The notes under the pieces are model-generated. The model was not told the origin of the DNA. It worked only from the letters and a program-made list of their open reading frames with translations, and searched no databases. Shown piece after piece: positions 874 to 48,300 of a stretch of 48,300 bases of DNA. The translations under genes and the position numbers were made by a program. Numbering within the stretch: the first letter of the stretch is position 1; every line of letters begins with the position of its first letter. Origin of the DNA: a virus; the IMG/VR virus record IMGVR_UViG_3300000839_000001; one strand, written 5' to 3'.

Positions 874-975
874 CAATCGAGCAGTAGCGATACCTTTGCC
901 ACAACATAGTAAAGGAGATTGCTATACAGAGTCGCCAGTCGGGTGTCCATTCCTTCTCGCTGGCGGCTCTACCTA

Positions 976-1035
976 ATTAGATGAAAAACTAGGTACTCCG
1001 AGTTTCCTCCCAGTATCAGCAGGCGGAAGCCTGTT
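976..1035 (+). promoter_or_regulatory. conserved hairpin element, copy A (loop TAGGTACTCCGA on the + strand)
   Basis: attagatgaaaaactaggtactccgagtttcctcccagtatcagc plus a 7-bp hairpin agcaggc-GGAA-gcctgtt. About 45 of 50 nt match the reverse complement of copy B. Confidence 0.6.
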
Positions 1036-1072
1036 CACAACCACCATATCTAGCCAGCAACGGAGCCTCTAT

Positions 1073-6893: not shown

Positions 6894-9191
6894 ATGGCTA
6901 TATATTGGTGGACGCCTTCAGTAGTTTTCCCACAAGGTAGTTTTCTTGCTCTCGATACAGAGACGACCGTTGTTGACTTGACGCGAGAAGTGCCAGCGAT
7001 GGTAGTAGGAGGTATATCTGATGGGCAGAACGTATATCTCTTGAAACCAGAAGACGTGATAAACTTTAGAGCTTACGCGGTAGCGTATAAGTACACATTA
7101 TTTATGCACAACGCCGCATTTGACTTGGCGGTTCTGGAGAAAGTCACGCAAGACGATCTACCCAAAGCTGCTAAAGAGGCAGGAACATCTTGGTATGATC
7201 TAGTAGATAGTAGTCAAGTAGTGGATACAATGCTGTTGTTCCAACTGTTGGAGATTGCTACGAAAGGCAAACATATCCAGAGTAGTTTGAAGTATGTTGT
7301 AGAAACCGTATTCGGTAAACAGGTCGAAAAACTAGCCCTTGATAAAGACGGTGATGTGATCCGAATGTCTTTTAGCAAATGGATAGGGCGTTTGGAGCAG
7401 ATGACCCAAGACTACGTAGACTACGTAGCGGACGATATTCTGTTGACCTATCAAGTAGGTATGCACCTATTGACTACCATTGCCGGTTTTGTGCAAGAGA
7501 GGGGTAGGAAACAAGATACGTTCGGCAATCTCACCATGTCCGAAATAACAGACGCATGGGGCAAATACGGCCCCCTAACGCATCATATTCAGCTAAAAGG
7601 AGCAATAGTCCTACATCAAATTACCTTGAATGGTATGTATGTAAACAGCGCCGCTGTAGAGCGCTTTATTGCTGAGGTACACAAAGAGGTTGAACAAATA
7701 GGGGCGAGACTTGCAACAGAATATGGATTTTTCAAAGGCCCCGGTTCCTCTGGAGTTTTGCAAGGTTTCTTTACACAGGTCGATCAAATAATAGTTGCCG
7801 AGCGTAGGAAACAAGGACTGCCTGTTACAGAGGTCTCGCAAGGAGTGTATACATTTCTACCTAGAACCGCCACCGGGAAATTTCAGACTGGGGCAGAAGT
7901 CATAGGTGAATATGAACTGCATAGCTACTCTGACTTTTTCGAGTTATACCTCAAGCACCAGACTTTAGAGAAGGAGTTAAATAGCTTTCTCAAGAAGTTA
8001 TACGGCGGCTATGGTATGTTCGGCAAACAGGACATAACGGTGCATCCATCGTTTACACCGATACTTAGCACCGGGCGAGTAAGTAGCTGGGGTGAGATCA
8101 ATTCTCAGAACATACCGAAGGTTAAAGGGATGCGAGAGTGTTTCGTAGCTAGAGAGGGTCACTGCTTTATCAATGTTGACTACTCCGGCATCGAAATGGT
8201 CACTCTGTGTGATGCGGTACGTAACCAGTTCCATGTAGATAGTCATGTCATGCAGGAAGCCATCAATAGTGGTAGAGACCTGCATAAAGAGACTGCGGCG
8301 TTCCTTGTAGGACATGATGACGTTACCAAAGAAGAACGGCAGAAAGCAAAGGCTGCAAACTTCGGACTCCCCGGCGGGATGGGAGGCAGGAGGCTCGCTA
8401 CCTACATGAGAGGGTATGGTGTTCGGATTACCGAGGAAGAGGGGCAAGCTATTGCGGATGGATGGAAGACTAAGTATCCAGAGATGCGGTACTTCATCAA
8501 TGAACTAGAGCCGCCAGCACAGGCTATTTTAGCACAGGCGGTATATAGTGAGACTGGTTGGTGTGCTTACAATGAAGCCCCTACAACCGAAGAAGGCTGG
8601 CGAATCTGTGGTTACATGACTGTAAAGCTGTGTACAGAACAAACCCCAGTTTCTAGTAGTGGCAACCCCTACGATATAAACATGGTGATGGGCGGTAGGA
8701 CATGTGTACAGAGCTGGGCTATAAAGAACGGTATAGCTGATTTACTGCCTGCAGGGTTTCCTCGATATCCAATCAGTAAGTCGAATATGGAGACTTTACT
8801 AGGTAGGCTGGGTTGGAAGTATACAGCAACAGCAACCGGCAGATATAGACGCACCAGTCGATTCACTGAAAAGCGGAATACTATCTTTCAAGGACTGGCT
8901 GCGGACGGGATGAAGCTCGCTAGTTACCTGATATATAGAGCAGGTTACAAGATAGTGAACATCGTTCATGACGAAATTCTGGTAGAAGTGCCAGACAACC
9001 GAGAGAGCTATACCGAAGCCTATAATGAGATATGTAACTTCATGCGGCAAGGTATGCACGAAGTAGTGCGAAATACTAGGGTAGAGGTAGAAGGCGCTAT
9101 TACTCGCTGTTGGAGTAAAGATGCCAAGCTACTTATGGATGATGACTATAACTATTTGATATGGGAGTATAACAATGCGACAGTTAGTTAG
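6894..9191 (+). CDS. family A DNA polymerase with 3'-5' exonuclease domain
   Basis: Exo I LALDTETT, Exo II HNAAFDLAVL, Exo III YVADDILLTY. Pol motif A DYSGIEMVTL, motif B RQKAKAANFGLPGGMG, motif C IVHDEILVEV. RBS aaggag. Confidence 0.9.
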   Translation: MAIYWWTPSVVFPQGSFLALDTETTVVDLTREVPAMVVGGISDGQNVYLLKPEDVINFRAYAVAYKYTLFMHNAAFDLAVLEKVTQDDLPKAAKEAGTSWYDLVDSSQVVDTMLLFQLLEIATKGKHIQSSLKYVVETVFGKQVEKLALDKDGDVIRMSFSKWIGRLEQMTQDYVDYVADDILLTYQVGMHLLTTIAGFVQERGRKQDTFGNLTMSEITDAWGKYGPLTHHIQLKGAIVLHQITLNGMYVNSAAVERFIAEVHKEVEQIGARLATEYGFFKGPGSSGVLQGFFTQVDQIIVAERRKQGLPVTEVSQGVYTFLPRTATGKFQTGAEVIGEYELHSYSDFFELYLKHQTLEKELNSFLKKLYGGYGMFGKQDITVHPSFTPILSTGRVSSWGEINSQNIPKVKGMRECFVAREGHCFINVDYSGIEMVTLCDAVRNQFHVDSHVMQEAINSGRDLHKETAAFLVGHDDVTKEERQKAKAANFGLPGGMGGRRLATYMRGYGVRITEEEGQAIADGWKTKYPEMRYFINELEPPAQAILAQAVYSETGWCAYNEAPTTEEGWRICGYMTVKLCTEQTPVSSSGNPYDINMVMGGRTCVQSWAIKNGIADLLPAGFPRYPISKSNMETLLGRLGWKYTATATGRYRRTSRFTEKRNTIFQGLAADGMKLASYLIYRAGYKIVNIVHDEILVEVPDNRESYTEAYNEICNFMRQGMHEVVRNTRVEVEGAITRCWSKDAKLLMDDDYNYLIWEYNNATVS

Positions 9192-9453: not shown

Positions 9454-9617
9454 GTGCTATGAAAGCTGAAACTATAGTGTTTGTACTCATATCCGTGGCG
9501 ACTCTTATACTAATAGGCGGTCTAGTATGGCCTAGGCCAACCTTTTACATCGAGGACGAAGATGCAGAGGAACAGAGAACTCCTAGAGGCTCTGAGGATT
9601 ATAGAGATTCCTAAAGA
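9450..9617 (+). CDS. possible 55-aa single-pass membrane protein (below the ORF-track cutoff)
   Basis: My translation: MSAMKAETIVFVLISVATLILIGGLVWPRPTFYIEDEDAEEQRTPRGSEDYRDS. ATGA overlap with the upstream stop. It overlaps the start of 9562..9825 by 56 nt, so one of the two starts is uncertain. Confidence 0.3.
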
Positions 9618-9825
9618 GTATCCACAGCGAGGTACTATAGCATGTCCTACATGTATGTTCTTCGGCGGACTCGCAGAGGAGTTGTCAGGCAGCCTAGAGT
9701 TACCTATAAATATATGTAACAATCCAGCAGTTGAGACGGATACGGCTAGGTGTGCCTTCGGTTGTCGGCTGTACATAGCTATAAAGGAGTTTCATCCTAG
9801 AAGGAGCAATCATTACTATGACTAA
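9562..9825 (+). CDS. small Cys-rich protein, member 2 of the CxxC family
   Basis: ACPTCMFFGG ... NICNNPAV ... ARCAFGCRLY. Confidence 0.5.
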   Translation: MQRNRELLEALRIIEIPKEYPQRGTIACPTCMFFGGLAEELSGSLELPINICNNPAVETDTARCAFGCRLYIAIKEFHPRRSNHYYD

Positions 9826-10018
9826 ACATCCAACTTGTGAGCAATGTAAATGGTACGAAGGTCTAAAGGTTAGACCCGTAAATGAAATACCGAAAATTGA
9901 GGAACTATGCAACCATCCCGCTGGCGTTTCTACAAGAGGTTACTACAGAGCGTGTAGAGATTACGAACCACTAGAACCGCCAGTCAAGAGTAGATTCGAG
10001 GATGACGATGAATTTTGA
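9818..10018 (+). CDS. small Cys-rich protein, member 3 of the CxxC family
   Basis: TCEQCKWYEG ... LCNHPAG ... RACRDYEP. Start overlaps the upstream stop. Confidence 0.6.
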   Translation: MTKHPTCEQCKWYEGLKVRPVNEIPKIEELCNHPAGVSTRGYYRACRDYEPLEPPVKSRFEDDDEF

Positions 10019-10226
10019 AGCTACCAAACGATGTATACGCTGCCGTTCTGCGGTAGCAGGAAAGGCTAAAGAGGTTGTTCCGTGGTTACTAGATGCTAAG
10101 GACTGGGATAAACAGGTTGTACTCTGTTGGCGGTTCGTGCAGGTACAGGGGATCAATAACAGAGCCTGTGAACACTTTGAATTGCACCCTAGATATATAG
10201 AGGCTACAGATGATAGCGGTACTTAA
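10002..10226 (+). CDS. small Cys-rich protein, member 4 of the CxxC family
   Basis: RCIRCRSAV ... VLCWRF ... RACEHFEL. Confidence 0.6.
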   Translation: MTMNFEATKRCIRCRSAVAGKAKEVVPWLLDAKDWDKQVVLCWRFVQVQGINNRACEHFELHPRYIEATDDSGT

Positions 10227-10398
10227 TTGCTGTGAACAGTGTAGGGCCTATACCTTTATGGTATTACATGATCGCTTTACTGGAGAGTATTACTTAACCG
10301 ATACAATAGGGTGTACGTTACATGGGTGTCTTACTAGACCAGATCAAATATGTATACATTTCGCCCTGAAAGATATGAAGAATGAGCAAGAAACATAG
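10210..10398 (+). CDS. small Cys-rich protein, member 5 of the CxxC family
   Basis: CCEQCRAYTF ... IGCTLHGC ... QICIHFAL. Confidence 0.6.
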   Translation: MIAVLNCCEQCRAYTFMVLHDRFTGEYYLTDTIGCTLHGCLTRPDQICIHFALKDMKNEQET

Positions 10399-11144: not shown

Positions 11145-12191
11145 ATGAGTAACGATACAGAGAAGGTTGTGCTAACTAGCAAAGGTTACCCTAAAGAATA
11201 CGTACCAGCAGTAGAGGAAGATATGTCACACATAGGACTACCGAACGTAATGCTCGCCCCAAACCAGCAAGCAGACTTGACGACTATAAAGTATCCGGCT
11301 TTTTGTTCATACAAAATGGACGGGATTCGAGCCATTTTCATCAATGGCGAGCTACGTAGTCGTAACATGAAATTTCACCCTGAGACTATACAGCAACACT
11401 TTCAGAACTTATGTGACTTTACCAGAGCCGCCAACTGTGTTTTGGATGGGGAGATATACCTGCACGGGTTGAAGTTCAATGAGATTAAAAGCACTATGCA
11501 CGATACATTGAAACTTGCTGCATGTCCTCTGGAGTTCCATTGTTTCGACATAGTAAGCACAGACGAGTGGCTTGGTGCTTCTGTAACCCCGTGGCATAAA
11601 CGCTACGCTACTCTGGAGTTATTCAGACAGGCATATACCTATGAGTTTGGTGACGACCGCTTTGTGCAGGTAGATCAGACATTACATAACAAGCCAGAGA
11701 CTATCCAAGACTTAATGGAGTTGTCTCTGGAAGAGGGGTTTGAGGGCATAATGATTAGAGACCCTTACTCGCTCTATAAGCATGGGCGAGCTACTATCAA
11801 GGAGAATACCTTCCATAAGTTGAAAGAGTTTGCTACCGTTCGGGCCGTCATAACTGGCTTCAATTATAAAGAAGTCTTGAAAGCAGATGCCCCAATGGGA
11901 GTAGATGCAATGGGATATACAGAGCGAGATCATCGCAAAGATAGCCGGGAAGTGATAGATGAAATTGGCTCTATCAACCTTGTCTTATCTGACAATACCT
12001 ACTTTCCAGTAGGTACGAAACTCTCTGCTACTTTTGCAAAGAACATGGAAGCCTACGCTCTGCGTTGTGCTATCACTACAAAGAACTTTAACTTCTATCT
12101 AGGGAAAGAAGTGTACGTCACCTTTCAACCCTGTGGCAGTGTAGATGCCCCTAGGTTTCCTAGAATTGTGAGACTGACCGGTGAAGTATGA
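11145..12191 (+). CDS. lig: ATP-dependent DNA ligase
   Basis: Motif I SYKMDGIRA (KxDG), motif III VLDGEIY, motif IV EGIMIRDP, motif V FHKLKEF. Confidence 0.85.
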   Translation: MSNDTEKVVLTSKGYPKEYVPAVEEDMSHIGLPNVMLAPNQQADLTTIKYPAFCSYKMDGIRAIFINGELRSRNMKFHPETIQQHFQNLCDFTRAANCVLDGEIYLHGLKFNEIKSTMHDTLKLAACPLEFHCFDIVSTDEWLGASVTPWHKRYATLELFRQAYTYEFGDDRFVQVDQTLHNKPETIQDLMELSLEEGFEGIMIRDPYSLYKHGRATIKENTFHKLKEFATVRAVITGFNYKEVLKADAPMGVDAMGYTERDHRKDSREVIDEIGSINLVLSDNTYFPVGTKLSATFAKNMEAYALRCAITTKNFNFYLGKEVYVTFQPCGSVDAPRFPRIVRLTGEV

Positions 12192-12248
12192 ACCGGGTAA
12201 TCTCTTATTACTAACGCACTGCGTGTACATAGATACTGGAGAAGTCTA

Positions 12249-12473
12249 ATGGAACTACAATGTAAGGATTGTAAGTATTGCGAACTTAATGCTAGGTTGT
12301 ATATTAAGCCTAGAGATTATCCAGACGGTACAAGTCCTGTAATGTATAAGAGAGGTCTGACTGTTATAAAGATGGCTATATGTTACCTTCCAAAGAAGCG
12401 TCAATCGCCTTTCTCAGTTTCTAAAACTCTCCCGTCCTCTAAAGCATGTAAAAAGTTTGAAAGAAAGGAGTAG
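12249..12473 (+). CDS. small Cys-rich protein, member 6 of the CxxC family
   Basis: QCKDCKYCEL ... AICYLP ... KACKKFERKE. RBS ctggagaag. Confidence 0.55.
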   Translation: MELQCKDCKYCELNARLYIKPRDYPDGTSPVMYKRGLTVIKMAICYLPKKRQSPFSVSKTLPSSKACKKFERKE

Positions 12474-12481
12474 CCCTTACA

Positions 12482-12559
12482 ATGTTGTTTGCTATAGTTA
12501 TTGTGTTTGTACTCACCATATGCGCACTGGCGGTTCTTACTGCAAAGGATAAGTTATGA
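12482..12559 (+). CDS. possible 25-aa hydrophobic micropeptide
   Basis: My translation: MLFAIVIVFVLTICALAVLTAKDKL. Its stop overlaps the next ATG (ATGA). Confidence 0.35.
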   Translation: MLFAIVIVFVLTICALAVLTAKDKL

Positions 12560-12651
12560 TAACCCTTATTGCCTTGATAGTTTCAATTGTTACTAATGTT
12601 GTATTAGTAGGTATCATTTTTAAGATACTTAGTTTTTTCCGTTGGCGTTAA
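12556..12651 (+). CDS. possible 31-aa single-pass membrane micropeptide
   Basis: My translation: MITLIALIVSIVTNVVLVGIIFKILSFFRWR. Confidence 0.35.
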   Translation: MITLIALIVSIVTNVVLVGIIFKILSFFRWR

Positions 12652-12671
12652 TTAGAAAGTAGGTGACTATT

Positions 12672-12836
12672 ATGTCAGAACCTCCCGTTCAACGTATCAT
12701 TTACGAACATCGTAACCCTACAGCAGAAACCGGGTGTGGATGCCTAATCCTGATTCTGCTTTCACCTTTTATTATCTCGGCGATATTGTTTGTCGCCTAT
12801 TGTGCAAGTAGTATACTAGGACTCCCTACCGATTAA
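12672..12836 (+). CDS. possible 54-aa single-pass membrane protein
   Basis: My translation: MSEPPVQRIIYEHRNPTAETGCGCLILILLSPFIISAILFVAYCASSILGLPTD. RBS gaaagtaggtga. Confidence 0.45.
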   Translation: MSEPPVQRIIYEHRNPTAETGCGCLILILLSPFIISAILFVAYCASSILGLPTD

Positions 12837-12846
12837 GCAGAGGTAC

Positions 12847-13002
12847 ATGATGGACGGATTCGACGATTTCGATTACTATGAAGAACATAATCGCAAACAC
12901 GAGAGACAGGGGTTTACAGCTAAGGAGTTCATAGTTCTATTACTAGCTGGGTGGTTAGGTTACCTTGCCGCCTCTGCCCTCGCTACATACCTAGGAGTTT
13001 AA
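12847..13002 (+). CDS. possible 51-aa C-tail-anchored membrane protein
   Basis: My translation: MMDGFDDFDYYEEHNRKHERQGFTAKEFIVLLLAGWLGYLAASALATYLGV. RBS gcagaggta. Confidence 0.45.
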   Translation: MMDGFDDFDYYEEHNRKHERQGFTAKEFIVLLLAGWLGYLAASALATYLGV

Positions 13003-13003
13003 T

Positions 13004-28648: not shown

Positions 28649-30010
28649 TTAGCCTTTAAGGGTATAGTCTATAGTTGACCAGTCACTTGAATGTTCTGCA
28701 CCTACTATAGCGTAGACCAGAGCATCTAGGTTGTTAGGAGAATCTGCTTTCGACTCTCCTGTAAAGCTCGTCATCTGTTTCTCTAATTCAGGGAATATAA
28801 ACGTATGATGAACTTTGTTCTGTGCGTATAGGTAGCTAATAGGTTCTGCTCTCAAATACTTACCACGTTTGGCGTGTACTGTGTAAATATGAGGGCAGGA
28901 TATACCTCTTTCATTAGCTGCGTGACGGATAGTATCTATGATAGTTTGTCCGCCTTGGTTTGTCTCTGCAATAATAGCGTCCGCTCTATAGTGCTCATAT
29001 AGCTGCATCGCTCGGTTCGCCCACTGTGAAGGTAGTCCGTGCATCGAGGAGTCATTTAGTATGAAGAAATGATATTCTCCATCTATCAAGGTTTTTCCCG
29101 CTACAATGATGCCAGTTTTATCACTACTTTCATTCGCTGTAACTGCCGGATCGATAGCAACCACTACTCTCTCAAGGGTAGGCATCATATCCGGGTGTAT
29201 TCGGTTTGCGTCAATAACATGCTGAGGCCATAGGGCATACTCTGCATTGTCTTGGAACTCACCTAGCAAGAATCGTTCTCTTGCTTTACCTACGTATCCA
29301 CTAAGTCGCGTCTTATACGCACTAGACAAGTTCTCCCAGTTATCATCTGGGTTCATTTGTATAGTGCCATATAGCTGTGGAAATCCTTCAATTGCTACCT
29401 GTAGCGTATGGTGTTTACCTTCAAAGAAGGTATCATATAGCCAGTGTGCCTTTGAAGGCGGGTTACAGTCTAGTATTACTTTGTTTACTAACTCTGTCCC
29501 ATACTTTACATGCTGACATTTCAAACTAGCTCGCGTATTCACTAGGTCAAATGCCTCGAAAGGTATAAGACTCGCTTCATTGAAATATATATGACCAAAC
29601 TCGGCCCCGAGGATTTTATCCAATCGCTCTTTATCCTCTACACCAGACATTGAGACTACTGAGCCTGTAGGATACGAAATAGTCAACTCTGTAACATTAG
29701 TTGTATATACTTTTTCGTGAAACTTCCTACCGCGGAGAGACTTTACTAATTCCCATCCCTCCATACGCAACATCTTCTTATACGTTTCGTTGAAAATACG
29801 TGCCCTCACATCGCTCTGTGTACTTCTCAGAATCGCCAGTGGGACGCCGTTACCTTCCATATCTACATACTGATAGCACTGCCAATGGAGCCATCTGCAT
29901 ATATTGATGGTCTTCCCTGAACGTGATCCTCCATAGTGGAGTTGGTTTGTTATAACAGGATCATTCAGTAATTTTAATTGTTCTAACTGTTTCGCCGTTG
30001 CTTTGAACAT
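28649..30010 (-). CDS. terLr: terminase large subunit
   Basis: Walker A YGGSRSGKT, Walker B-like HIYFNEAS, nuclease-domain VVAIDPAVTANESSDKTGIIVAG. Confidence 0.85.
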   Translation of the reverse strand: MFKATAKQLEQLKLLNDPVITNQLHYGGSRSGKTINICRWLHWQCYQYVDMEGNGVPLAILRSTQSDVRARIFNETYKKMLRMEGWELVKSLRGRKFHEKVYTTNVTELTISYPTGSVVSMSGVEDKERLDKILGAEFGHIYFNEASLIPFEAFDLVNTRASLKCQHVKYGTELVNKVILDCNPPSKAHWLYDTFFEGKHHTLQVAIEGFPQLYGTIQMNPDDNWENLSSAYKTRLSGYVGKARERFLLGEFQDNAEYALWPQHVIDANRIHPDMMPTLERVVVAIDPAVTANESSDKTGIIVAGKTLIDGEYHFFILNDSSMHGLPSQWANRAMQLYEHYRADAIIAETNQGGQTIIDTIRHAANERGISCPHIYTVHAKRGKYLRAEPISYLYAQNKVHHTFIFPELEKQMTSFTGESKADSPNNLDALVYAIVGAEHSSDWSTIDYTLKG

Positions 30011-36785: not shown

Positions 36786-38018
36786 TTACAGTGCTTCCAA
36801 GTCCTCCACAGGACAAAGGTAACGATACATCGTAGCTTCGTCAAAGCTAGGTCGTTGTCGCAGCGTTACTTCCGGCAGATAAATAATCGGCCCGCCGAAG
36901 GGTTTCGCTGTCTGCAAATAGGTACGCAAATGCTGCCTAGTGAGCCACATGCCATAATTCGGTTCCATCGGCTCACTTATTGCTGTGTACTTCCCACCAT
37001 GTGAGTTGCCGAAGAACAGAGCTTCTTCAAGCCTCTGTCCCGATGTTCGCCTTACAGTCGGAGGTCTCCAGTCGCCTACCTCTGTAGCATGTCCACCGCC
37101 GCCACCAAAAACAGGTAATTTGAGTCCTGTAGAGGAGGGATTGGAGCCTGTCGGCCATATAGTGTTCCCAACCTCTGTATGGAATCCAGCCTTACCTGCG
37201 GCAAACATAACGTCAATCACCTGATCGACGGTCATTCTGTTCTGTTCCCACGGAATGTATGTAACATAGCACTGGTGCTGCGTAGCTTCAGCAAGGAACT
37301 GCTTATACTTAGTAGGTGCTGCTGTTACAGAACCGCCGACCAAACTGGCTGGAAACCTACCCAACCGAGTCATGTAGTCTGCCATGTACGCCAAAATCTG
37401 TCCGCCACGCATACTATCGCCTTTAGAGGCATACCACGTAGCTATGCGGTTCATTTCGGTATATTCTGTAGGCACTCCAATCGCTCGTCGTCGAATGGTA
37501 CTGAGCTGTGCTGCGTTCTCTGCCGCGTGGGAGCAGCAGCTACCGATATTTTCTTGACTAGGAACCAGCTTTAAGCCAGTAGGGAGTCCGTCTTTTTCAG
37601 CAATCACCCAGTGCCAATCACAACATACCGGCTTTCCTGCTGCTGGACGCCACATTGCTTCGACATACTTGCCGTATGTATCGAACAAATTCAGCAAGTC
37701 GTCGTCAAACTTGATAGTTCTGGCGTTGGTATCGAGGTTTTCTTGTCCCGTACCAATGCCTATCGAGTTGATGGACACTGCCGCTTCGACCATTTCGTCG
37801 TGTAGCAGGCGTCCTGCATTACCTTCTTCATAACAACCTAGTGCAAGTCCTTCTCGCCGAATATCCGAAGGTATGCCATGTTCAAGGTCGTATATATACG
37901 CCTGTAAAGGCTTCCTAGAAGGTCTACTCATACCCTCTGTTTGTTGGGCAGGAGTACCTACTATAGCCTTTACTTCTGGAGTCAGTGGAGAACCACCAGT
38001 TGGGATTTCATTTGACAT
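36786..38018 (-). CDS. papain-like (C1-type) cysteine peptidase candidate
   Basis: SQENIGSCCSHA has Gln six residues before Cys, as in papain Q19/C25. GGGGHATEVGDW is His-motif-like. FFGNSHGG resembles the NSWG Asn motif. Start moved to MSNEIPTGG at 38018 to remove the overlap with the upstream gene. Confidence 0.5.
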   Translation of the reverse strand: MSNEIPTGGSPLTPEVKAIVGTPAQQTEGMSRPSRKPLQAYIYDLEHGIPSDIRREGLALGCYEEGNAGRLLHDEMVEAAVSINSIGIGTGQENLDTNARTIKFDDDLLNLFDTYGKYVEAMWRPAAGKPVCCDWHWVIAEKDGLPTGLKLVPSQENIGSCCSHAAENAAQLSTIRRRAIGVPTEYTEMNRIATWYASKGDSMRGGQILAYMADYMTRLGRFPASLVGGSVTAAPTKYKQFLAEATQHQCYVTYIPWEQNRMTVDQVIDVMFAAGKAGFHTEVGNTIWPTGSNPSSTGLKLPVFGGGGGHATEVGDWRPPTVRRTSGQRLEEALFFGNSHGGKYTAISEPMEPNYGMWLTRQHLRTYLQTAKPFGGPIIYLPEVTLRQRPSFDEATMYRYLCPVEDLEAL

Positions 38019-38076
38019 AATAGTTACGTTACTCCGTATAATAAAGATACTATTCTGGGTACAGAGCAGTATCGAA

Positions 38077-39024
38077 TTACCGCCGATTCCTATATACTGG
38101 TCTTTGTTGCGGCTGGCTCGGAACAATACGCTGTGTATCGATCTGCTCCACCTTCACCTTGTTGTTCATAGCGTCCACCTCCCCCATAGCGATATTACCA
38201 GAACTCCTCGGCGTGACTAATCCGCCCAACTCCGTTAAAATACCTACATATTCAGTGGTAGTTTTGGCATCTGCAAGGTAAACAGCGTCTACTTTTCCAA
38301 TAAATTCACGTAATTTGTCGCTACCTGTCCGTCCCGCTAACATCGCCGCCATCACCCATGTACTCTGTACCTGTGACAAAGTGTTCGATGGTATCACCTG
38401 CTTGACATACTCGGTAGTAATGAGGTTCAACTGTTGCTTGTCTATAGCAGTAAAACTCGTACTATATTGACTGTAAAGACCCGCCAATGAAGTTGGGTTG
38501 GGCTGTGGCTCCGGGGTCGGTTGCGGCTCTGGAGTCGGTGGAATAGGTTCCGGTGTTGGCGGCACCGGCGTCACATCACCTACTGTGCTGAACTGTGTCC
38601 TCACCACATATAAGTGTGGAGTGTGGAGTGTGGAGTGTGGAGTGTCTTCTGCTCCCTGCTCTTCCTGCTCTGCGAGGTAGCTGCATACAATCAAGTAGGT
38701 CTCTGCTACCGGCGAAGTGAAGTACAACACCTCTTTCCCACTGTCCACTGCATAGGTATGTCTCGCCTCTGTCGTCCCCAACTTGGCCACCGTCCACTGC
38801 ACGTCTTGCAGTGTAGCAGTAACCTCTGCTGAGTCAGTAGCTACAGTCAATACGATAGGTAGCAACTTACCTGTTTTAGTCTCTGTAGGAACCGCCAGCT
38901 GATAAGGAGCCTGAACGGCTCCCGCTACTGAGTCCTCAGAGTATCTAGGACTCAAGGCGGGCTGGGCGACAGCACTCATTACGCTCGCCGCAAAAACTAT
39001 AAATGAAATAAATACCTTATACAT
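38077..39024 (-). CDS. secreted protein with a Pro/Thr/Glu linker, first gene of the minus arm
   Basis: Signal-peptide-like MYKVFISFIVFAASVMSAVAQ. Linker TPVPPTPEPIPPTPEPQPTPEPQPNPT. ataggcgagtat precedes the ATG. Confidence 0.65.
   Translation of the reverse strand: MYKVFISFIVFAASVMSAVAQPALSPRYSEDSVAGAVQAPYQLAVPTETKTGKLLPIVLTVATDSAEVTATLQDVQWTVAKLGTTEARHTYAVDSGKEVLYFTSPVAETYLIVCSYLAEQEEQGAEDTPHSTLHTPHLYVVRTQFSTVGDVTPVPPTPEPIPPTPEPQPTPEPQPNPTSLAGLYSQYSTSFTAIDKQQLNLITTEYVKQVIPSNTLSQVQSTWVMAAMLAGRTGSDKLREFIGKVDAVYLADAKTTTEYVGILTELGGLVTPRSSGNIAMGEVDAMNNKVKVEQIDTQRIVPSQPQQRPVYRNRR
38613..38646 (-). repeat. heptanucleotide tandem repeat (agtgtgg on +, ccacact on the coding strand), about 4.8 copies, inside a CDS
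   Basis: Read directly. Encodes DTPHSTLHTPHL. Confidence 0.85.
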
Positions 39025-39048
39025 ATACTCGCCTATGTCTATAAGTAG

Positions 39049-39104
39049 TTCAGCAAAGCTGCTGATACTGGATGAAGCTCGGAGTACCTAGTTTCATCTA
39101 ATCA
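39049..39104 (-). promoter_or_regulatory. conserved hairpin element, copy B
   Basis: cagcaaagctgctgatactggatgaagctcggagtacctagtttcatctaat. Stem atgaagc/gtttcat around loop tcggagtaccta. Ends about 25 nt upstream of the 39024 start. Confidence 0.6.
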
Positions 39105-39783
39105 GAGAGTGAGGGCAGGTAGGTCATCACTCTACCTACCCTCGTCGGTGCTTCAGTCCGACTAGCTACCTTACCGGATACTGCTGGTTATTAGGCAGTA
39201 GGCAGCTTCCCGCTTCGCAATATATCTTATACGTCCGAACGATAGGGTTTGTCCCGAAAAATCCCGGAAATTCTATGGTTTTGTGGATACGGCGGGCGGT
39301 TCCTTATATACGCTACACGGAATTGATTATTGTGGTGGATTTCAACTACCTACAAGGTGACAAGGACAATATCGGAGAGTCGGCTAAAATCGATTTTAAG
39401 AGGGTGTACGCTTTCAATGAAGCGAGATTGATCGACACATGGTGTTTGTGGTCATGTGGTCTATTGAAACTTGTACAATTTCAATACGGATTGCTTCCAT
39501 AAATTTGAATTTTGTTTTTGAAAATCAAAAGCTAGGGAGGTGTAGAGGGATATGGAGAATTGAATATCGTAGGAAGGTTAATGGAGTTACATAATTGGAA
39601 AGGTTGGAGAGGCTAATGAAGTTACGTAATTGAAGAGGTTTGAAAGGTTTAGAAGTGCCACGGCCTGAGATAACGTCGCTATGAGCACAGCTGCTATGGA
39701 GATCATAATCGCTATTTTATTTTTATAAAATTGAGGGAAGCATTTAGAACCGCCACCGTGACTATGTTTGATCGCTATGGACA

Positions 39784-39860
39784 TAAGAGTGTAACCATGA
39801 AGACTGCTGGAAGCCTAATAGTAGCCGCTGCTACGGAGTAAGAGTGTAACCATGAAGACT
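39784..39860. repeat. pair of perfect 22-nt direct repeats taagagtgtaaccatgaagact (39784..39805 and 39839..39860)
   Basis: Read directly. Each contains GTGTAACC. Confidence 0.9.
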
Positions 39861-39951
39861 TGCTGGAGAATTTGGGCTTGACGTGAACAGATAGGCGAGC
39901 TGCCCCGATCCTCCCATACTCCCTATCGTTTTTGAAGGTCTCCCCGTTCCC

Positions 39952-40030
39952 ACGAACAGAGCGGCCAAAGCAGGCAGGGCGATTGCTGGGCGGCTAGGGC
40001 GAAACGAACAGAGCGGCCAAAGCAGGCAGG
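39952..40030. repeat. pair of perfect 27-nt direct repeats acgaacagagcggccaaagcaggcagg (39952..39978 and 40004..40030)
   Basis: Read directly. Start-to-start spacing is 52 nt. Confidence 0.9.
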
Positions 40031-40091
40031 CGGTGTAGCGATTGATCGACCTCGCAAAGCAAGTATAGTTAGATTGGCGAATAGGGAGTAA

Positions 40092-40167
40092 GACCGTAAC
40101 CGCGCAACCACGTAACCATAAAATTAGGGATCGGCAATTGTGGTTACGCGGTTGCGTGGTTATGGTC
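40092..40167. repeat. imperfect 29-nt inverted repeat. Each arm holds three 8-nt-spaced G(T/C)AACC units.
   Basis: gaccgtaaccgcgcaaccacgtaaccata versus the reverse complement of tgtggttacgcggttgcgtggttatggtc. 25 of 29 match, with an 18-nt spacer. Confidence 0.8.
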
Positions 40168-40398
40168 GGTCGATTTGTGGGAATCGACTGAAAATTGGGT
40201 GTAACCGGGGCGGTTACGGCAGTGCCAGCCCCCGGTTGACGTAGTTACACCCTTAAAAATAGGAATATCTATTGATATGTAACGAGTAACTATTCTAAAG
40301 TAAAAGATCGTCTAACAAAATGCCTTTCCGGGGGGGAAAAAGAGGGGGGGAGACCTCGCTGGTTACACTGAAATGATCGTTACGAGCCGCCCGTAACC

Positions 40399-40439
40399 AT
40401 TATATATATATCCACGGGCCGCGTAACCGGCCCGTGGAT
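40399..40439. promoter_or_regulatory. (TA)6 tract abutting an 11-bp perfect GC-rich hairpin whose loop carries GTAACC
   Basis: attatatatatat, then atccacgggcc-gcgtaacc-ggcccgtggat. Confidence 0.7.
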
Positions 40440-40499
40440 ACGAAAGTAATCAAACAGGTTTCATAACCATATAACCGGAGCCGCCTCCCGGCAACTTGT

Positions 40500-40523
40500 G
40501 GTTACACGGTTACACGGTTACAC
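40500..40523. repeat. tandem iterons GGTTACAC x3
   Basis: ggttacacggttacacggttacac read directly. Confidence 0.9.
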
Positions 40524-40576
40524 GTAGATAGCCCATTCTGTGTAACGGAAAAGTTGTATCTATCAAACATTTCTAT

Positions 40577-40609
40577 GGGGGTGGGGGTGGGGGTGGGGTG
40601 GGGTGGTGG
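40577..40609 (+). other. G-quadruplex-forming tract: five G4-5 runs separated by single T
   Basis: gggggtgggggtgggggtggggtggggtggtgg read directly. Confidence 0.8.
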
Positions 40610-40630
40610 TTCTTTCGCTGCGTCTCCAAA

Positions 40631-40824
40631 CGCCGTAAGTCTTTATAGCGGAAGGGTTTATAGCGAAACTTCCGCAGTGAATCTACGTATTCGAGCGTGG
40701 CGATTCTCAAAAAACTAAGTGTCCATCCGGGAATTTCTCCCTATTTTTCTCGGAAATTTTCCAGCATCGGGGAAATTTCTAGCAGCACTTTTATCGCCAT
40801 AAGTCCTTTATAGGTAAAGGTTTA
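40631..40824. repeat. two imperfect 30-nt direct repeats (40631..40660 and 40795..40824), each followed by TGGCG(A/G)TTCTC
   Basis: cgccgtaagtctttatagcggaagggttta versus cgccataagtcctttataggtaaaggttta. Confidence 0.7.
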
Positions 40825-40978
40825 CGGCGGTTGGCGGTTCTCGACACGAAAAATTTCCTAGAAAATTCCCCCACTTTCGGGGGGTTTTATAGGATTTCCT
40901 CTAGCCCGCGGCGGTTCTAGTCGATATAATACAGTAGACGCGGGAAAGAAAGCCAGCCCGCAAAAACCACCATATCTA

Positions 40979-41011
40979 ACAGAAACAGGAACAGAAACAG
41001 GAACAGAAATC
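40979..41011 (+). repeat. 12-nt tandem repeat acagaaacagga x2.75, ending at the start codon of 41012
   Basis: Read directly. Confidence 0.85.
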
Positions 41012-42978: not shown

Positions 42979-43139
42979 TCTCCCTAAGCCCCTACGGCGT
43001 AGGGACTTACATCAAAATCAGTCCCGTTGGCGATTCTAACGGGACTACCTTTACAGTTTAGTGTACTACCGTCATAGTACACTGCTACATAGCATCATCA
43101 CCTAGCCAGTCACCATATCTATCACCGGAACTATCTATC

Positions 43140-44057: not shown

Positions 44058-44236
44058 CAGTATCTAAGGGAGTGCATTGACCTAACAATCAGAACCGCCA
44101 GTGTGATATGGGCGAATAGGCCATATCATGCTCTTGCTACTGTTGACGCTTTAGCGTCATCTTGAGTAGCATAGCTATTACCCTGTTTGGTAGTAGCACT
44201 TACACCATAACCGCCCAATAGGGCAAAGGAACACTA

Positions 44237-45009: not shown

Positions 45010-47187
45010 ATGAGTACAACGGAACAATCTAAAGTGTCAGAACAAAGAGTATGCAATGTTACTATGAAGGGAGAGCAAATAGAATTTGCCTTCCCGTTCG
45101 GGTACAAAGAATTGTCTAACGGCAAAGTCCCCTTTAGAGCGTATGATATACATGATGACGCCTATTGGGGCTCGTTCCCGGAAAAGTATACCGATGAAGA
45201 AGGTAACTATGTCGGGAGACAAGCAGAGCGGGACGCCCCCTTCTCTCTCATTTGGAAACGCCCAAAGAGGATAGAGATTGTCAAGGCTTTCAATCTCTTG
45301 CTAGAGCATTGCAACCCCGCCACATACAACTACCGCTTTGAGAGCAATACACCCTATATAGCACAGATTATGGGGGATAACCTCGCTCTTGAGAACCGCC
45401 AGCGATTGGCGGTTCCGTATATCTATCAAGCCCTTCAATATCCTCTTATGGAGCATCAAATAGAGGAAGTTAGCAAGGCAGCGCTATGTACCGGCAGGTG
45501 TAACTTTTCGGCAACCGGAACCGGCAAGACGGTGATGATTATAGCTACTATGTTCAATAAGTGGTTATTAGAAGGCCGACCGGATAGGCCCTGCTTGATA
45601 GTCTGCCCCAACCACATACGACTTGCATGGAAGCGAGAGTTTGACACGTTCACTAACCACAATGTGAAGTGTACAATAGTCATGGGTACACCTGCCCAAA
45701 GGAAATATATACTATTCAATGCCCTAGGTCAACCATTGCAAGATGTACCAGTGGAGTACGCTACTACTGGCGAGACTGGCACGAAGCCTATGCGGGTTAT
45801 AATTGCCGGATACGATACCGTCACCAATGATATACTTGACTTTATGATAGGTGACTGGTTTGCCGGTTGTCTTGACGAAGCGCATAGGATAAAAACACCC
45901 CTGACCAATAGAACGGAAGCTATCTTTAATCTACAAAGAAGGATTAAGCATCGCTATGTAGCAACAGGTACGCCGGACACCAATAGCTTTGCGGACGCGT
46001 ACACGCCTATAGAATGGGTGTTCCCTAACTATTTCGGCAAAAGGTGGCATGAAGACATTACCGAACATAGCGAGACACGTAGCACTGCCAGAACAGAGAA
46101 AGAGCGGAAGAGAGATAAAGAAAAGGCGACATTACGTAATGCTCTCAACAAGTATCCCGGTCAACCTAGCGGACGGACGGACGGGATACCTATCAAACCC
46201 TATATCAATGATTCTGAAAACAATCTTGGAGTAAAATGGAGTAGCCTTAATGGTGGACAAGAGCGTCTTATTTCCGAGTTTGGGACTACGGATAGTTTTG
46301 GAAAAGCAAAGAAGCTATATAGACATAAAGAACAGGAGTTTCAAGACCTTATAAAGTATGCTAGTTGTAGGTATCTCTTGACTGATATACGGGACGATAT
46401 GCCCGATCAAATCATGGAAGTCGTACCTATCGACCTTACCGAAGAACAGAAAGTGGTATACAAAGCCTTACAAGAGAAACTTTTGTATGCTATGGAGTCT
46501 GCGGAAGGTATGAAGACCGTGACAATAACGAACATGCTTACTCAATACTTGCGACTGGTACAAGTTACAGGCGGTTGGGTACAGTATGATGAAGAAAGCG
46601 GTTGGGACTTTGAGAACGGCACACTCATAGAGAGCGTAACTACTAGGGAAGACTTTGTAGACAATCCCAAACTAGATAAGGCTATCGAACTATGTCAGGA
46701 AGCGATAGTAGATAACAAGTGCATCATCTGGGCACATTTCCGTCACGACATAGACTTGATTATGTCAAGGCTGGCGAGTCTTGGTATAAAACACGCTAGG
46801 ATTGACGGGAGAGATACAGATAAGAATCGCCAAGAAGTCATACACGCTTTCAACAATGATTCTACAATGCGTGTACTGGTAGCTAACCCCGGAGCATGTG
46901 GGGAAGGGTTAAACCTACAAGGTGTTCAAGGTACGGAAGCTAAAGACTATGATGACGCTGTTCTATGTAACACGCTCATATTCTATAGTACCTCTTGGAG
47001 TAGTAAGGACTTTATTCAGGCAATGGCCAGACCATACCGATTGAATACTACATGCACACAATACATATACTCGCTACAAGCGAGAGCGTCGATTGACAAC
47101 TACATATACAGTGTTGTGCAAGGCAAATGTGACGCAAGCAGAGAGCTGTTAGGTGACGTTCTCAAACAATCTGTGGGGACTACCTAG
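45010..47187 (+). CDS. SNF2/Rad54-family (SF2) helicase-ATPase
   Basis: Motif I SATGTGKTVM, motif II LDEAHRIK, motif III ATGTPDTNS. C-terminal lobe GEGLNLQ and QAMARPYR. Confidence 0.85.
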   Translation: MSTTEQSKVSEQRVCNVTMKGEQIEFAFPFGYKELSNGKVPFRAYDIHDDAYWGSFPEKYTDEEGNYVGRQAERDAPFSLIWKRPKRIEIVKAFNLLLEHCNPATYNYRFESNTPYIAQIMGDNLALENRQRLAVPYIYQALQYPLMEHQIEEVSKAALCTGRCNFSATGTGKTVMIIATMFNKWLLEGRPDRPCLIVCPNHIRLAWKREFDTFTNHNVKCTIVMGTPAQRKYILFNALGQPLQDVPVEYATTGETGTKPMRVIIAGYDTVTNDILDFMIGDWFAGCLDEAHRIKTPLTNRTEAIFNLQRRIKHRYVATGTPDTNSFADAYTPIEWVFPNYFGKRWHEDITEHSETRSTARTEKERKRDKEKATLRNALNKYPGQPSGRTDGIPIKPYINDSENNLGVKWSSLNGGQERLISEFGTTDSFGKAKKLYRHKEQEFQDLIKYASCRYLLTDIRDDMPDQIMEVVPIDLTEEQKVVYKALQEKLLYAMESAEGMKTVTITNMLTQYLRLVQVTGGWVQYDEESGWDFENGTLIESVTTREDFVDNPKLDKAIELCQEAIVDNKCIIWAHFRHDIDLIMSRLASLGIKHARIDGRDTDKNRQEVIHAFNNDSTMRVLVANPGACGEGLNLQGVQGTEAKDYDDAVLCNTLIFYSTSWSSKDFIQAMARPYRLNTTCTQYIYSLQARASIDNYIYSVVQGKCDASRELLGDVLKQSVGTT

Positions 47188-47364
47188 TAACAATGCTAAC
47201 TAGAATTATTTGGGAAAATTTGAACAAAATTTTATTTTTACTGGGATTATGATTCGCCAGAAACGTATAAATTATGGTAACACGGGAATTGACCTAGTTA
47301 CCAACTACTATATAGCTAGGGGCCGATGCCAACGGCAGGCCCTACTATACAGTAGCATCATAAA

Positions 47365-47420
47365 GCAGCAAAGCTGCTAAATACCGGATAGTCTTCGGAG
47401 TACCTAAAGACTATCTAACT
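47365..47420 (+). promoter_or_regulatory. conserved hairpin element, copy C (same plus-strand orientation as copy B)
   Basis: gcagcaaagctgctaaataccggatagtcttcggagtacctaaagactatctaact. Stem atagtctt/aagactat around the same loop. Confidence 0.6.
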
Positions 47421-47432
47421 AGAAAGCATATT

Positions 47433-47756: not shown

Positions 47757-48047
47757 GTGAGGTGACGCTCACTAGCCACTAGGTGCGAAACGATGACCGC
47801 AATACCTAGTAGCACCGCAAGTAAGGCAGTTCCGGCCATAGCTTGCAGCCCCTTGATACCTTATGGTGGGGTAGACAAGGGGCAGACCACAGATGACGCT
47901 TTAGCGTCAACGCCCGATCTTCGCTAGGTAATACCGCTATCTCCAGATAAGGATTGTAGTATTATGTAGGTTGGATTCCTACTATCGGGGCTGTATCAGA
48001 ACAATGTCTGCTAATACGGATATTGCTCTGAATACATAACAGTATCA

Positions 48048-48078
48048 ATCAGAACCGCCAGTCGCTGGCGGTTCTGAT
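48048..48078. promoter_or_regulatory. perfect 14-bp-arm palindrome atcagaaccgccag-tcg-ctggcggttctgat
   Basis: Read directly. Ends 36 nt upstream of the wrap-around gene start. There is no downstream T-run, so it is more operator-like than terminator-like. Confidence 0.6.
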
Positions 48079-48113
48079 ATAGATTGTACAGAACCATTTA
48101 GGAGATACCTATC

Positions 48114-48300
48114 ATGTCCGATGCTTTGAACGCTTTCCTCTCACAACACGCTGCTACGCAGCCCGATGCTACCCAACAATACGTTCCCCCTGTTGCGGCC
48201 CCTGTTGCGGCCCCTGTTGCGGCCCCTGTTGCGGCCCCTGTTGCGGCCCCTGTTGCGGCCCCGATCCCTGCGGCCCCGATCCCTGCGGCCCCTGTTGCGG
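48114..48300 (+). CDS. 5' part of a gene that runs off the window end and resumes at 1..873. N-terminus MSDALNAFLSQHAATQPDATQQYVPP, then PVAA/PIPAA repeats
   Basis: ATG at 48114 lies 6 nt after aggagatacc. The frame is open to base 48300. The last 28 nt equal the first 28 nt and join in frame with the ORF ending at 873. Confidence 0.75.
   Translation, partial: MSDALNAFLSQHAATQPDATQQYVPPVAAPVAAPVAAPVAAPVAAPVAAPIPAAPIPAAPVA
48189..48300 (+). repeat. in-frame tandem coding repeats: six 12-nt units cctgttgcggcc (PVAA), two 15-nt units ccgatccctgcggcc (PIPAA), then a partial unit
   Basis: Read directly. The array continues at 1..84 as three alternating 15/12-nt pairs. Confidence 0.9.

Follow-up and report, generated by a model that had tools for sequence, protein, structure and literature searches.

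A large non-coding control region with an iteron cluster and a candidate replication origin between the early and late arms of a tailed phage

In polyomaviruses, the NCCR lies between the divergent early and late units, and its core origin combines a palindrome holding four pentanucleotide sites for the SF3 helicase-initiator with an adjacent AT tract. The alpha protein of phage P4 recognises octamer iterons both at ori and at a distant second site, crr. P4 alpha and ORF904 of pRN1 share a layout of SF3 helicase and RFX-like winged helix (PMC2777425). The Rep proteins of the SaPIs are self-loading SF3 helicases that recognise iterons of five or six nucleotides through a C-terminal winged helix, and the SaPI origins, located directly downstream of rep, contain 6-12 such iterons, which surround an AT-rich centre so that each side has two or more, pointing in opposite directions (PMC9371898). 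In the lactococcal c2-type phages (Ceduovirus), the origin lies in the non-coding region between the divergent early and late blocks; early promoters flank this region, and a role in initiation is ascribed to a non-coding transcript (PMC7150918). In this study I compare these systems with a locus in a phage from a lineage without cultured or close sequenced relatives.

The DNA analysed here (the window) is 48,300 nt long and represents the entire ENA contig ERZ27245261:k141_96548, found in one sample only. Positions 39025-41011 divide its late (minus) arm from its early (plus) arm. A preceding reading of this DNA, made from its letters alone (the sequence-only reading), placed the boundaries correctly: 39024 is the start of the last minus-arm gene (315 aa), and 41012 that of the first plus-arm gene (106 aa). 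It also stated that the interval holds no convincing open reading frame, and this stands for 39503-41011, where all ORFs and frames score negative, but not for 39275-39502 on the plus strand, where a possible small early gene of 75 aa (orf75) yields the sole positive coding score within the interval. The 3-periodic composition of orf75 (+8 bits per 150 nt) is on par with that of the flanking genes, and gene callers in both the ENA and the IMG records predict it; a search of 1.84 billion representative proteins, PHROGs and Pfam found no homologue. As orf75 is gene-like, the securely non-coding DNA consists of 39025-39274 and 39503-41011, the latter 1.5 kb in length. Recoding of stop codons does not alter this picture, as reading through TAG, TGA or TAA gives no long ORF in the interval. 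The statement that genes abut elsewhere was somewhat too strict, since other gaps of 150-250 nt do occur, but the interval is the largest gap by far. The gaps at 9454-10381 and 12192-13003 contain small ORFs only.

The repeats named in the sequence-only reading are all present. The interval counts 64 repeated 10-mers, while the remaining 2-kb windows of the genome have 4.5 +/- 3.2 and reach 18 at most; this amounts to about 14 times the genomic background and makes the interval far richer in repeats than every other 2 kb of the genome. The exact hexamer GTAACC/GGTTAC is found 13 times in 756 nt (39790-40545), where 0.45 occurrences are expected (Poisson P ~3e-15), and across 300 simulated genomes the maximum per window of equal size was 5. 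Eleven further sites deviate by one mismatch, and the 13 exact and 11 near-exact sites together lie within 39576-40545, arranged as direct repeats, inverted repeats and a triple tandem, with SYGTAACCR as the iteron consensus. The only other short-motif cluster of such a kind in the genome is a coding repeat at the contig ends.

In the middle of this cluster, a stability scan detects a block of 73% AT (40254-40313), a candidate DNA-unwinding element that ranks third among the least stable 60-mers of the 48.3-kb genome. Seven of the exact GTAACC sites lie to its left and six to its right, in both orientations on each side. A 30-bp inverted repeat at 40092-40167 (87% complementary, 16-nt spacer, DNA fold z -6.8) carries four iterons oriented > > < <, and a second inverted repeat at 40197-40252 carries three. 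The right-hand iteron block (40361-40545; six exact and four near-exact sites) includes a (TA)5 tract (40399-40411), a perfect 13-bp palindrome with the loop CGTAAC (40409-40440) and a tandem (GGTTACAC)x3 (40500-40523). Further to the left, each copy of the perfect 22-nt direct repeat TAAGAGTGTAACCATGAAGACT (39784-39860; two copies, 55 nt apart, starting at 39784 and 39839) contains a GTAACC iteron, and each copy of a purine-rich 35-nt tandem (39574-39647; 2.1 copies) contains the degenerate iteron AGTTAC(A/G)TAA. The perfect 27-nt direct repeat ACGAACAGAGCGGCCAAAGCAGGCAGG (39952-40030; two copies, 52 nt apart, starting at 39952 and 40004) is devoid of GTAACC and lies where the DNA of the region is most GC-rich and most stable. 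The plus strand furthermore shows two G7 runs (40330-40350) and a (TGGGG/TGGGGG)n tract with G-quadruplex or R-loop potential (40576-40609); the local GC skew is +0.16 and +0.11, whereas the flanks have -0.06 and -0.13. An iteron model does not account for the 27-nt repeats, the purine-rich tandem or the G-runs. A CsrA sponge at the GGA-rich positions 39530-39660 was considered and dropped, because this segment has no hairpin structure (z about -0.9 to +1.2) and no Rfam Csr/Rsm match.

The candidate initiator is encoded outside the interval, at 2896-4581 on the plus strand, with the iteron cluster located about 10.7 kb upstream of it. Domain and structure matches divide this 561-aa protein into D5_N (a weak match), an SF3 helicase (DUF5906, E 2e-12) and a C-terminal RFX-like winged-helix region; downstream of its gene follow a Prim-Pol gene (4581-5648) and then Pol A (6894-9191). 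The sole match to a solved structure at E<=0.01 is PriRep5 of SaPI5 (7OLA/7OM0; E 4e-10, residues 178-497), with an alignment that spans the N-terminal tier into the C-terminal domain, and judged by this sequence comparison the two proteins are homologous. The putative winged helix is weakly assigned: RFX5 is a weak second match in the PDB (E 0.049, residues 456-511), and Pfam RFX scores 21.4 bits, under the cut-off of 27. An AlphaFold model of the helicase, built on a 2-sequence alignment, has a pLDDT of 30, too low to be of use here.

With the SaPIs the phage thus shares a helicase homologous to PriRep5 and hexanucleotide iterons halved around an AT-rich centre, in both orientations on each side. 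At least six clustered iterons of 5-8 nt in non-coding DNA, a central AT-rich region flanked on both sides and an SF3 helicase with a C-terminal winged helix, the latter weakly supported, are traits that define the SaPI/P4 type, and all of these are found here. The location immediately downstream of, or within, the rep gene is not, as about 10.7 kb separate the cluster, which is inside the 2-kb control region of a lytic-looking tailed phage, from the helicase gene; neither here nor in the relative L181 is an iteron cluster found near the helicase gene. The scale differs as well, with about 24 sites over 750 nt in the phage versus 6-12 over about 300 nt in the SaPIs, and the primase of the phage is a separate Prim-Pol protein. 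The combination of primase, SF3 helicase and C-terminal RFX-like winged helix also recalls P4 and pRN1, but the iterons have no sequence similarity to those of P4, and no second, crr-like cluster was found. In common with c2, the interval is non-coding and lies between divergent early and late blocks; different from c2, it pairs with a candidate phage initiator and iterons. The 40092-40167 inverted repeat, with its four hexamers oriented > > < <, is a close architectural analogue of the polyomavirus NCCR, although the likeness is solely one of function and architecture, with no relation in lineage or scale. A DnaA-dependent oriC is a poor model, as no cluster of DnaA boxes lies by the AT-rich element: boxes of the type TTATCCACA are not enriched (13 with one mismatch in 48.3 kb, where 12.3 are expected, and one in the interval), so a host-initiator signature that would back an origin is lacking.

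The two ends of the interval carry elements of a different kind. At the late-arm side (39025-39274), copy A of a three-copy hairpin element (39047-39103, minus strand) is located 23-79 nt upstream of where the first late gene begins; two further copies occur at about 970-1040 (plus) and, in minus-strand reading, at 47352-47425. The element consists of two hairpins, the first with a conserved 12-nt loop, TAGGTACTCCGA, and in an alifold of the three copies 5 of the 16 pairs are kept via changes on both sides, with an invariant loop. It is absent from the relatives, and exact-pattern scans of IMG/VR with the hairpin loop and with the triple iteron returned unrelated chance matches only. A GC-rich hairpin, GAGGGCAGGTAGGT...ACCTACCCTC, follows at 39111-39143 in the divergent promoter interval, and the windows at 39000-39199 fold with z about -3.3 to -4.1 on both strands.

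At the early side (40606-41011), the arms of a 41-nt imperfect inverted repeat (40626-40666 and 40794-40834, plus strand) flank an operator-like cluster, and a motif scan finds six GGAAATTTCC-like dyad sites at 40729-40872; of all GGAAATTTCC-like matches in the 48.3-kb window, 8 out of 29 fall within 210 nt. The distant relatives L181 and L179 share the block at 40729-40822 at the motif level in their non-coding DNA, in the order TATTTTTCTCGRAAATTTT, GGGAAAATTCC and TTTATAG/TAATATAT, with a borderline similarity (blastn E 0.03). An intrinsic-terminator-like hairpin, CCCCCACTTTCGGGGGG, followed by TTTTAT (40868-40890, plus strand), precedes a GGCGGTTC motif and the consensus -10 hexamer TATAAT (together 40910-40930, plus strand), of which the latter, at 40925-40930, sits 82 nt upstream of the first early gene. 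The leader of this gene (40940-41011, plus strand) comprises a hairpin GCGGG...CCCGC, a tandem (AACAGR)5 and the phage-specific motif CACCATATCTA (40968-40978), common to other early genes, and all four genomic copies of CACCATATC are located 27-62 nt upstream of plus-strand gene starts. Of the c2-type arrangement, in which two early promoters flank the region and a non-coding transcript is needed for initiation, the TATAAT at 40925, the hairpin at 40868-40890 and the conserved promoter-like blocks may be counterparts, but sigma-70-type promoter matches are no commoner than chance. In a search aimed at host identification, the GGCGGTTC palindrome had 68 matches in reference genomes, scattered over phyla without enrichment or synteny.

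Comparison with other phages is limited to distant ones. Two of the contigs, L007 and L004, encode a structural protein 52-53% identical to that of the phage, and their early non-coding stretch contains four copies of GTAACGAGAG, then (TGGAAGAA)5, an AT tract and an inverted CTCTCGTTAC. With these motifs they keep the GTAAC core and the same layout despite DNA that is unalignable; the contigs L003-L009 and L179-L181 neither align with the interval as DNA nor give a tblastx signal against it, and the early proteins of the phage have no homology to the small early proteins of L007. Protein-pattern scans of IMG/VR for close relatives, by way of the SNF2 helicase or the 446-aa ORF at 36786-38126, returned none, nor did a search of IMG/VR with a 4-sequence alignment of the 410-aa protein contained in that ORF. 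In searches of 5.8 billion proteins, three different proteins reached no more than 55%, 41% and 47% identity to their best matches. No DNA match was found in 50,697 phage records, including no homology to the c2, bIL67 or 923 ori types, and no DNA similarity in a plasmid database, and the collections searched contained no close relatives suitable for covariation or Ka/Ks analyses.

The reading that I consider somewhat better than an even bet is that the interval is a composite non-coding control region working at the DNA level, which unites a replication origin with early and late promoters. The proposal of such a hub by the sequence-only reading fits everything testable here, i.e. the iterons, the helicase, the promoter motifs and the relatives, but GC skew pinpoints no origin. 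Under this composite reading, 39025-39274, with its copy of the two-hairpin element, would be the divergent promoter and leader zone of the late arm, and may additionally serve orf75. The origin would occupy about 39790-40545, where the roughly 24 hexamers flank the meltable AT-rich block at 40254-40313 and the (TA)5 tract. The SF3 helicase would bind the hexamers via its winged-helix C-terminal domain, self-load to the left and right of the AT-rich block and melt it, after which the neighbouring Prim-Pol would prime and Pol A extend; rightward transcription over the plus-strand G-runs may aid opening or priming. The positions 40620-41011 would then act as the early promoter and operator zone, with the six GGAAATTTCC-like dyads, the terminator-like hairpin, TATAAT and CACCATATCTA.

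Alternatively, and this is the explanation that survives best among those that I consider unlikely, the interval may serve transcriptional control only. Clusters resembling iterons can also be operators or enhancer-like transcription-factor sites, and in that case the GTAACC repeats, the 22- and 27-nt repeats and the GGAAATTTCC dyads would time early and late expression, with the sigma-like protein encoded at 1656-2159 or other early proteins as regulators and with an origin elsewhere. The position between divergent early and late arms, the promoter-like elements, the presence of a phage-encoded sigma-like protein, and a dyad cluster that is partly kept in relatives upstream of -10-like elements all agree with this, as do the distance between the cluster and the helicase gene and the cumulative GC skew, whose global minimum is near 44-45 kb and not at 40 kb. 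The skew at the interval is, however, inseparable from gene orientation. Moreover, some 24 hexamers over 750 nt around the least stable DNA are typical of an origin and excessive for an operator, the family of the encoded SF3 helicase needs short iterons while the genome offers no second cluster of them, and no HTH regulator besides the sigma-like protein and the winged helix of the helicase was detected among the early proteins.

The sequence-only reading further suggested that one or more large structured non-coding RNAs could be encoded here, and this finds no support. A covariance-model search with Rfam 15, which includes the large bacterial and phage-associated RNA families, gave 0 matches at the gathering threshold over the whole 48.3 kb, and at E<=5 the interval yields three noise matches only (15-21 bits). 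The 800 nt at 39250-40050 show no more folding than shuffled sequence does (z 0 to +2), and the segments that do fold strongly are DNA palindromes, equal on both strands; since excess folding is confined to these, a large structured RNA is unsupported. A short plus-strand RNA that ends at the terminator-like hairpin at 40868-40890 is possible: for RNA of 40606-40895 the plus strand has a fold z of -3.8, and G-U pairs make the folding of the minus strand weaker. More speculatively, and I regard this as rather improbable, a rightward transcript of the 1.5-kb non-coding stretch, started at an early promoter and trapped at the G-runs as an R-loop or G-quadruplex hybrid, could prime or license replication at the iteron origin, or a new regulatory RNA could end at 40868-40890. 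Priming or licensing of the former kind would be similar to that of ColE1 or of mitochondrial CSBII, here joined to a self-loading SF3 helicase in a tailed phage.

That non-coding RNA is what the interval as such encodes is a slimmer prospect still. The product would be, for example, a plus-strand RNA ending at the 40868-40890 terminator, about 75 nt long with a start from a TTTATAG-type -10 near 40807, or about 290 nt long with the 40626-40834 stem included, or else a long transcript that primes the origin in the manner of PE1-T of phage c2, which offers a precedent (PMC7150918). The terminator-like hairpin with its T-run, the asymmetric folding of 40606-40895 and the plus-strand G-runs with positive GC skew, which favour R-loops of rightward transcripts, are in line with this, whereas the absence of a match to any Rfam family, the lack of excess structure over 39250-40050, the strand symmetry of the strongest structures and the chance level of sigma-70-type promoter matches are not.

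Three further explanations have little to recommend them. Terminal regions of T7-type phages are non-coding and carry many short repeats, and as the contig is circularly permuted and one repeat occurs at both of its ends, it could conceal physical termini of the genome (a direct terminal repeat, or cos with packaging signals) within the interval; I find this very unlikely, as the candidate genes for the small and the large terminase are 9 kb off, the interval contains no long internal duplication, and no resemblance to a known cos or pac site was noticed. Decayed coding sequence or a functionless recombination scar is a shade less credible again: the relatives have two small genes (73 and 99 aa) between the divergent promoter zone and the iteron zone, where this phage has orf75 at most, but the repeats are highly organised, tblastx against the relatives shows no remnant, and lytic phages seldom retain 1.5 kb of junk. 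The 22-nt and 27-nt pairs have a superficial repeat-spacer-repeat geometry (spacers of 33 and 25 nt), yet to mini-CRISPR arrays or solitary-repeat decoys I give next to no credence, as the 27-nt repeat, the one scanned, does not occur exactly in any of 185,579 reference genomes (one per species), the repeats lack CRISPR-like dyad symmetry, the flanks reveal the units as longer tandem duplications with indels, and an iteron lies inside the 22-nt repeat. A partition site was likewise rejected, as the phage proteins scanned include no ParA, ParB or integrase.

The control region is therefore a feature of an ordinary kind that is unusually large here. Origins have been mapped in very few phages, and in almost none of those known from metagenomes only, and this locus provides a testable pairing of a SaPI-Rep-like SF3 helicase (2896-4581) with a probable iteron, GTAACC, and an unwinding element. 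If the proposed origin does not hold, what remains is the ordinary finding of a large non-coding control region. If it does, a self-loading initiator of the SaPI/P4 type would be compatible with an origin 10 kb from rep, inside the early/late control region.

The interval 39025-41011, described in the sequence-only reading as a repeat-rich, non-coding gap, is real, and every repeat listed for it was recovered there; it contains 64 repeated 10-mers, whereas 2-kb windows elsewhere hold 4.5 ± 3.2 and at most 18. The coding score, obtained from a 3-periodic Markov model trained on the window's own genes, is above zero only for an open reading frame of 75 aa (39275-39502, plus strand) and below zero for all other ORFs and frames (39503-41011), while reading through any one stop codon yields no long ORF. 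In a homologue search the 75-aa ORF matched only itself, as called in the IMG record of this contig, and it therefore stays a possible gene; the securely non-coding DNA of the interval amounts to 250 nt plus 1.5 kb. Each of the purine-rich 35-nt repeats at 39530-39650 has a Shine-Dalgarno-like GGAGG or GGAAGG, followed by ATG and a mini-ORF of 3-11 codons (MEN, MELHNWKGWRG and MKLRN, each closed by a stop), a pattern that is probably coincidence. The early arm has another ORF-poor stretch, about 400 nt long (47757-48156), which holds a hairpin, GACGCTTTAGCGTC, with a second copy at 44160, and one GGCGGTTC palindrome.

There are 13 copies of the hexamer GTAACC/GGTTAC in 39791-40521, versus 28 in the remaining 46 kb, where its number is about that expected at random. 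For this 756-nt cluster 0.45 copies are expected (Poisson 3e-15), and in 300 simulated genomes the densest window of the same size held 5 hexamers. Eleven more iterons carry one mismatch, the consensus being SYGTAACCR. The 22-nt direct repeats, 55 nt apart, contain one iteron each, a 30-bp inverted repeat (40092-40167) contains four, arranged > > < <, and a second inverted repeat (40197-40252) three, while the right-hand block (40361-40545) comprises a (TA)5 tract, a perfect 13-bp palindrome with the loop CGTAAC, and (GGTTACAC)x3. The left and right blocks are separated by 40254-40313, which is 73% AT and the third least stable 60-mer genome-wide. No comparable short-motif cluster was found elsewhere in the genome. 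The iterons do not account for the 27-nt repeats, the purine-rich 35-nt tandem or the G-runs.

The iterons are likely read by the 561-aa product of the gene at 2896-4581, which has D5_N and SF3 ATPase (DUF5906) domains and a weak RFX-type winged-helix match at its C-terminus. Its sole match among solved structures at E ≤ 0.01 is PriRep5 of SaPI5 (7OLA/7OM0, E 4e-10), with residues 178-497 aligned to PriRep5 434-748, into the C-terminal domain; RFX5 comes next, weakly. SaPI Reps are self-loading SF3 helicases whose C-terminal winged helix reads penta- or hexanucleotide iterons; 6-12 of these surround an AT-rich centre, two or more per side and in opposite directions, and neither binding nor melting needs ATP (PMC9371898). 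The combination of SF3 and RFX-like winged helix is common to P4 alpha and pRN1 ORF904 (PMC2777425). The cluster resembles SaPI origins in its iterons, AT-rich centre and orientations; unlike them it is not located immediately downstream of rep, because about 10.7 kb separate it from the helicase gene.

A large structured non-coding RNA, also proposed for the interval, is without support, as no tRNA, no Rfam family and no broad excess of structure was found: Rfam gathering thresholds gave zero families in the whole window, and E ≤ 5 gave three noise matches in the interval. In sliding 150-nt windows, excess folding is confined to 39000-39250, 40050-40300 and 40350-40550 and is equal on both strands, the signature of DNA palindromes, and for 39250-40050 the fold is not better than that of shuffled sequence (z 0 to +2.3). 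The predicted fold of 40606-40895 as plus-strand RNA (z -3.8) makes a short RNA or leader possible there.

The earlier proposal of an origin combined with a promoter hub stands as the best-supported reading. Some observations fit it poorly or run against it: cumulative GC skew, for which gene orientation is a confounder, dips only locally at 39 kb and reaches its global minimum at 44-45 kb; there is no enrichment of DnaA boxes, and sigma-70-type promoter matches are at chance level. Local GC skew is positive (+0.16, +0.11) versus negative flanks, and together with the plus-strand G-runs this would suit R-loops formed by rightward transcripts, for which reason I retain a c2-like or ColE1-like transcription-assisted step as the more novel, less likely case; in c2 a non-coding transcript is implicated in initiation (PMC7150918). 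On balance, I lean slightly towards a replication origin at 39.8-40.55 kb, and with greater confidence regard the interval as a control region bound by proteins at the DNA level.

A two-hairpin element peculiar to this phage has the first of its three copies at the left edge (39047-39103, minus; the others are at about 970-1040, plus, and 47352-47425, read on the minus strand). The 12-nt loop, TAGGTACTCCGA, does not vary among the copies, and the stems show covariation, with compensation at 5 of 16 pairs; the first two copies are in sense orientation 23-40 nt before gene starts, and the third is antisense to its neighbouring genes. The nearby first late gene contains a perfect 7-nt tandem, AGTGTGG x4.7 (38613-38645), and its 315-aa product has a signal-peptide-like N-terminus and Pro/Thr/Glu-rich repeats.

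At the right edge, 40664-40870 holds 8 of the window's 29 GGAAATTTCC matches (≤2 mismatches), followed by a terminator-like hairpin with a T-run (40868-40890), GGCGGTTC and then TATAAT (40910-40930), another hairpin, and CACCATATCTA (40968-40978). Its core, CACCATATC, occurs four times in the genome, in each case 27-62 nt ahead of a plus-strand gene start, and CACCATATC(T/A), at 1042-1052, 1592-1602, 40968-40978 and 43111-43121, usually just 3' of a hairpin, is a candidate phage-specific early/middle promoter or leader element.

No other 8-mer of the genome comes close to the over-representation of GGCGGTTC (extended form AGAACCGCCA), which has 27 copies versus about 1.5 expected, for example at 5510, 7127, 15766, 20921, 31939, 38889, 39295, 39747, 40833, 40910 and 44967, and in two perfect inverted pairs (45393-45415, 48052-48074). 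Its presence in every reading frame, on either strand, and in coding as well as non-coding DNA indicates a DNA-level signal; 9 of 10 late-arm copies are oriented with transcription, and the early arm is unbiased. The relatives lack it, and its matches in reference genomes were merely scattered.

The window corresponds to the entire ENA contig ERZ27245261:k141_96548 (48,368 bp), present in a single sample, and is circularly permuted, as the same repeat occurs at both ends. An ORF from about 48157 apparently crosses these ends (48157-48300 joined to 1-873) through a perfect 12/15/27-nt tandem (CCCCTGTTGCGG / GCCCCGATCCCTGCG); it would encode a Pro/Ala-rich repeat protein, of which the listed ORF 103-873 is probably just the tail. 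The structural minus arm (14230-39024) encodes the large terminase (28649-30010), portal, major head protein and tail protein. The plus arm, from 41012 over the window end to 13585, encodes small early proteins, an SNF2 helicase (45010-47187), a sigma-like protein (1656-2159), the D5/SF3 helicase (2896-4581), Prim-Pol (4581-5648), Pol A (6894-9191) and ligase (11145-12191). No integrase, ParA or ParB was detected among the proteins scanned.

In two contigs of distant relatives (L007, L004), whose structural protein is 52-53% identical to the window's, a late gene is followed by a 560-640-nt divergent zone, two small plus-strand genes (73 and 99 aa) and a non-coding stretch with GTAACGAGAG x4, (TGGAAGAA)5, an AT tract and inverted CTCTCGTTAC; all 6 GTAACG sites of the 6-kb L007 fall inside this stretch. 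Layout and GTAAC core are thus kept, though no DNA alignment with the interval was obtainable. No GTAAC cluster occurs near the helicase gene (product 47% identical to the window's) of L181, an 18.5-kb locus of a 36.9-kb contig from the same sample as L004. The early region of a further relative, L009, contains a tandem array of about 600 nt (2214-2838) of 23/37-nt units (AATCAGGTCGGCCTGTGACCGGC), then AT-rich DNA with two consensus sigma-70 promoters (TTGACA-17-TATAAT). Early non-coding DNA rich in iterons is thus a trait of the lineage. The segment 40729-40822 is similar to non-coding DNA that lies 3' of the SNF2 operon of L181 and of another relative, L179 (blastn E 0.03, borderline); common to them are TATTTTTCTCGRAAATTTT, repeats of GGGAAAATTCC, and after these TAATATAT or TTTATAG. 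Downstream of that operon both relatives carry a conserved non-coding stretch of about 300-400 nt (L181 3400-3700, L179 4240-4469) with tRNA T-arm-like sequences (GGTTCGATTCC), for which ARAGORN and Rfam returned nothing; a degenerate tRNA or tRNA-like RNA is one possibility.

A DNA similarity search gave no match in 50,697 phage records and 72,556 plasmids, and the closest protein relatives are 41-55% identical; the phage is very isolated. This isolation, the size of the interval and the distance from the iterons to the initiator gene are of note in what is otherwise a known kind of feature.
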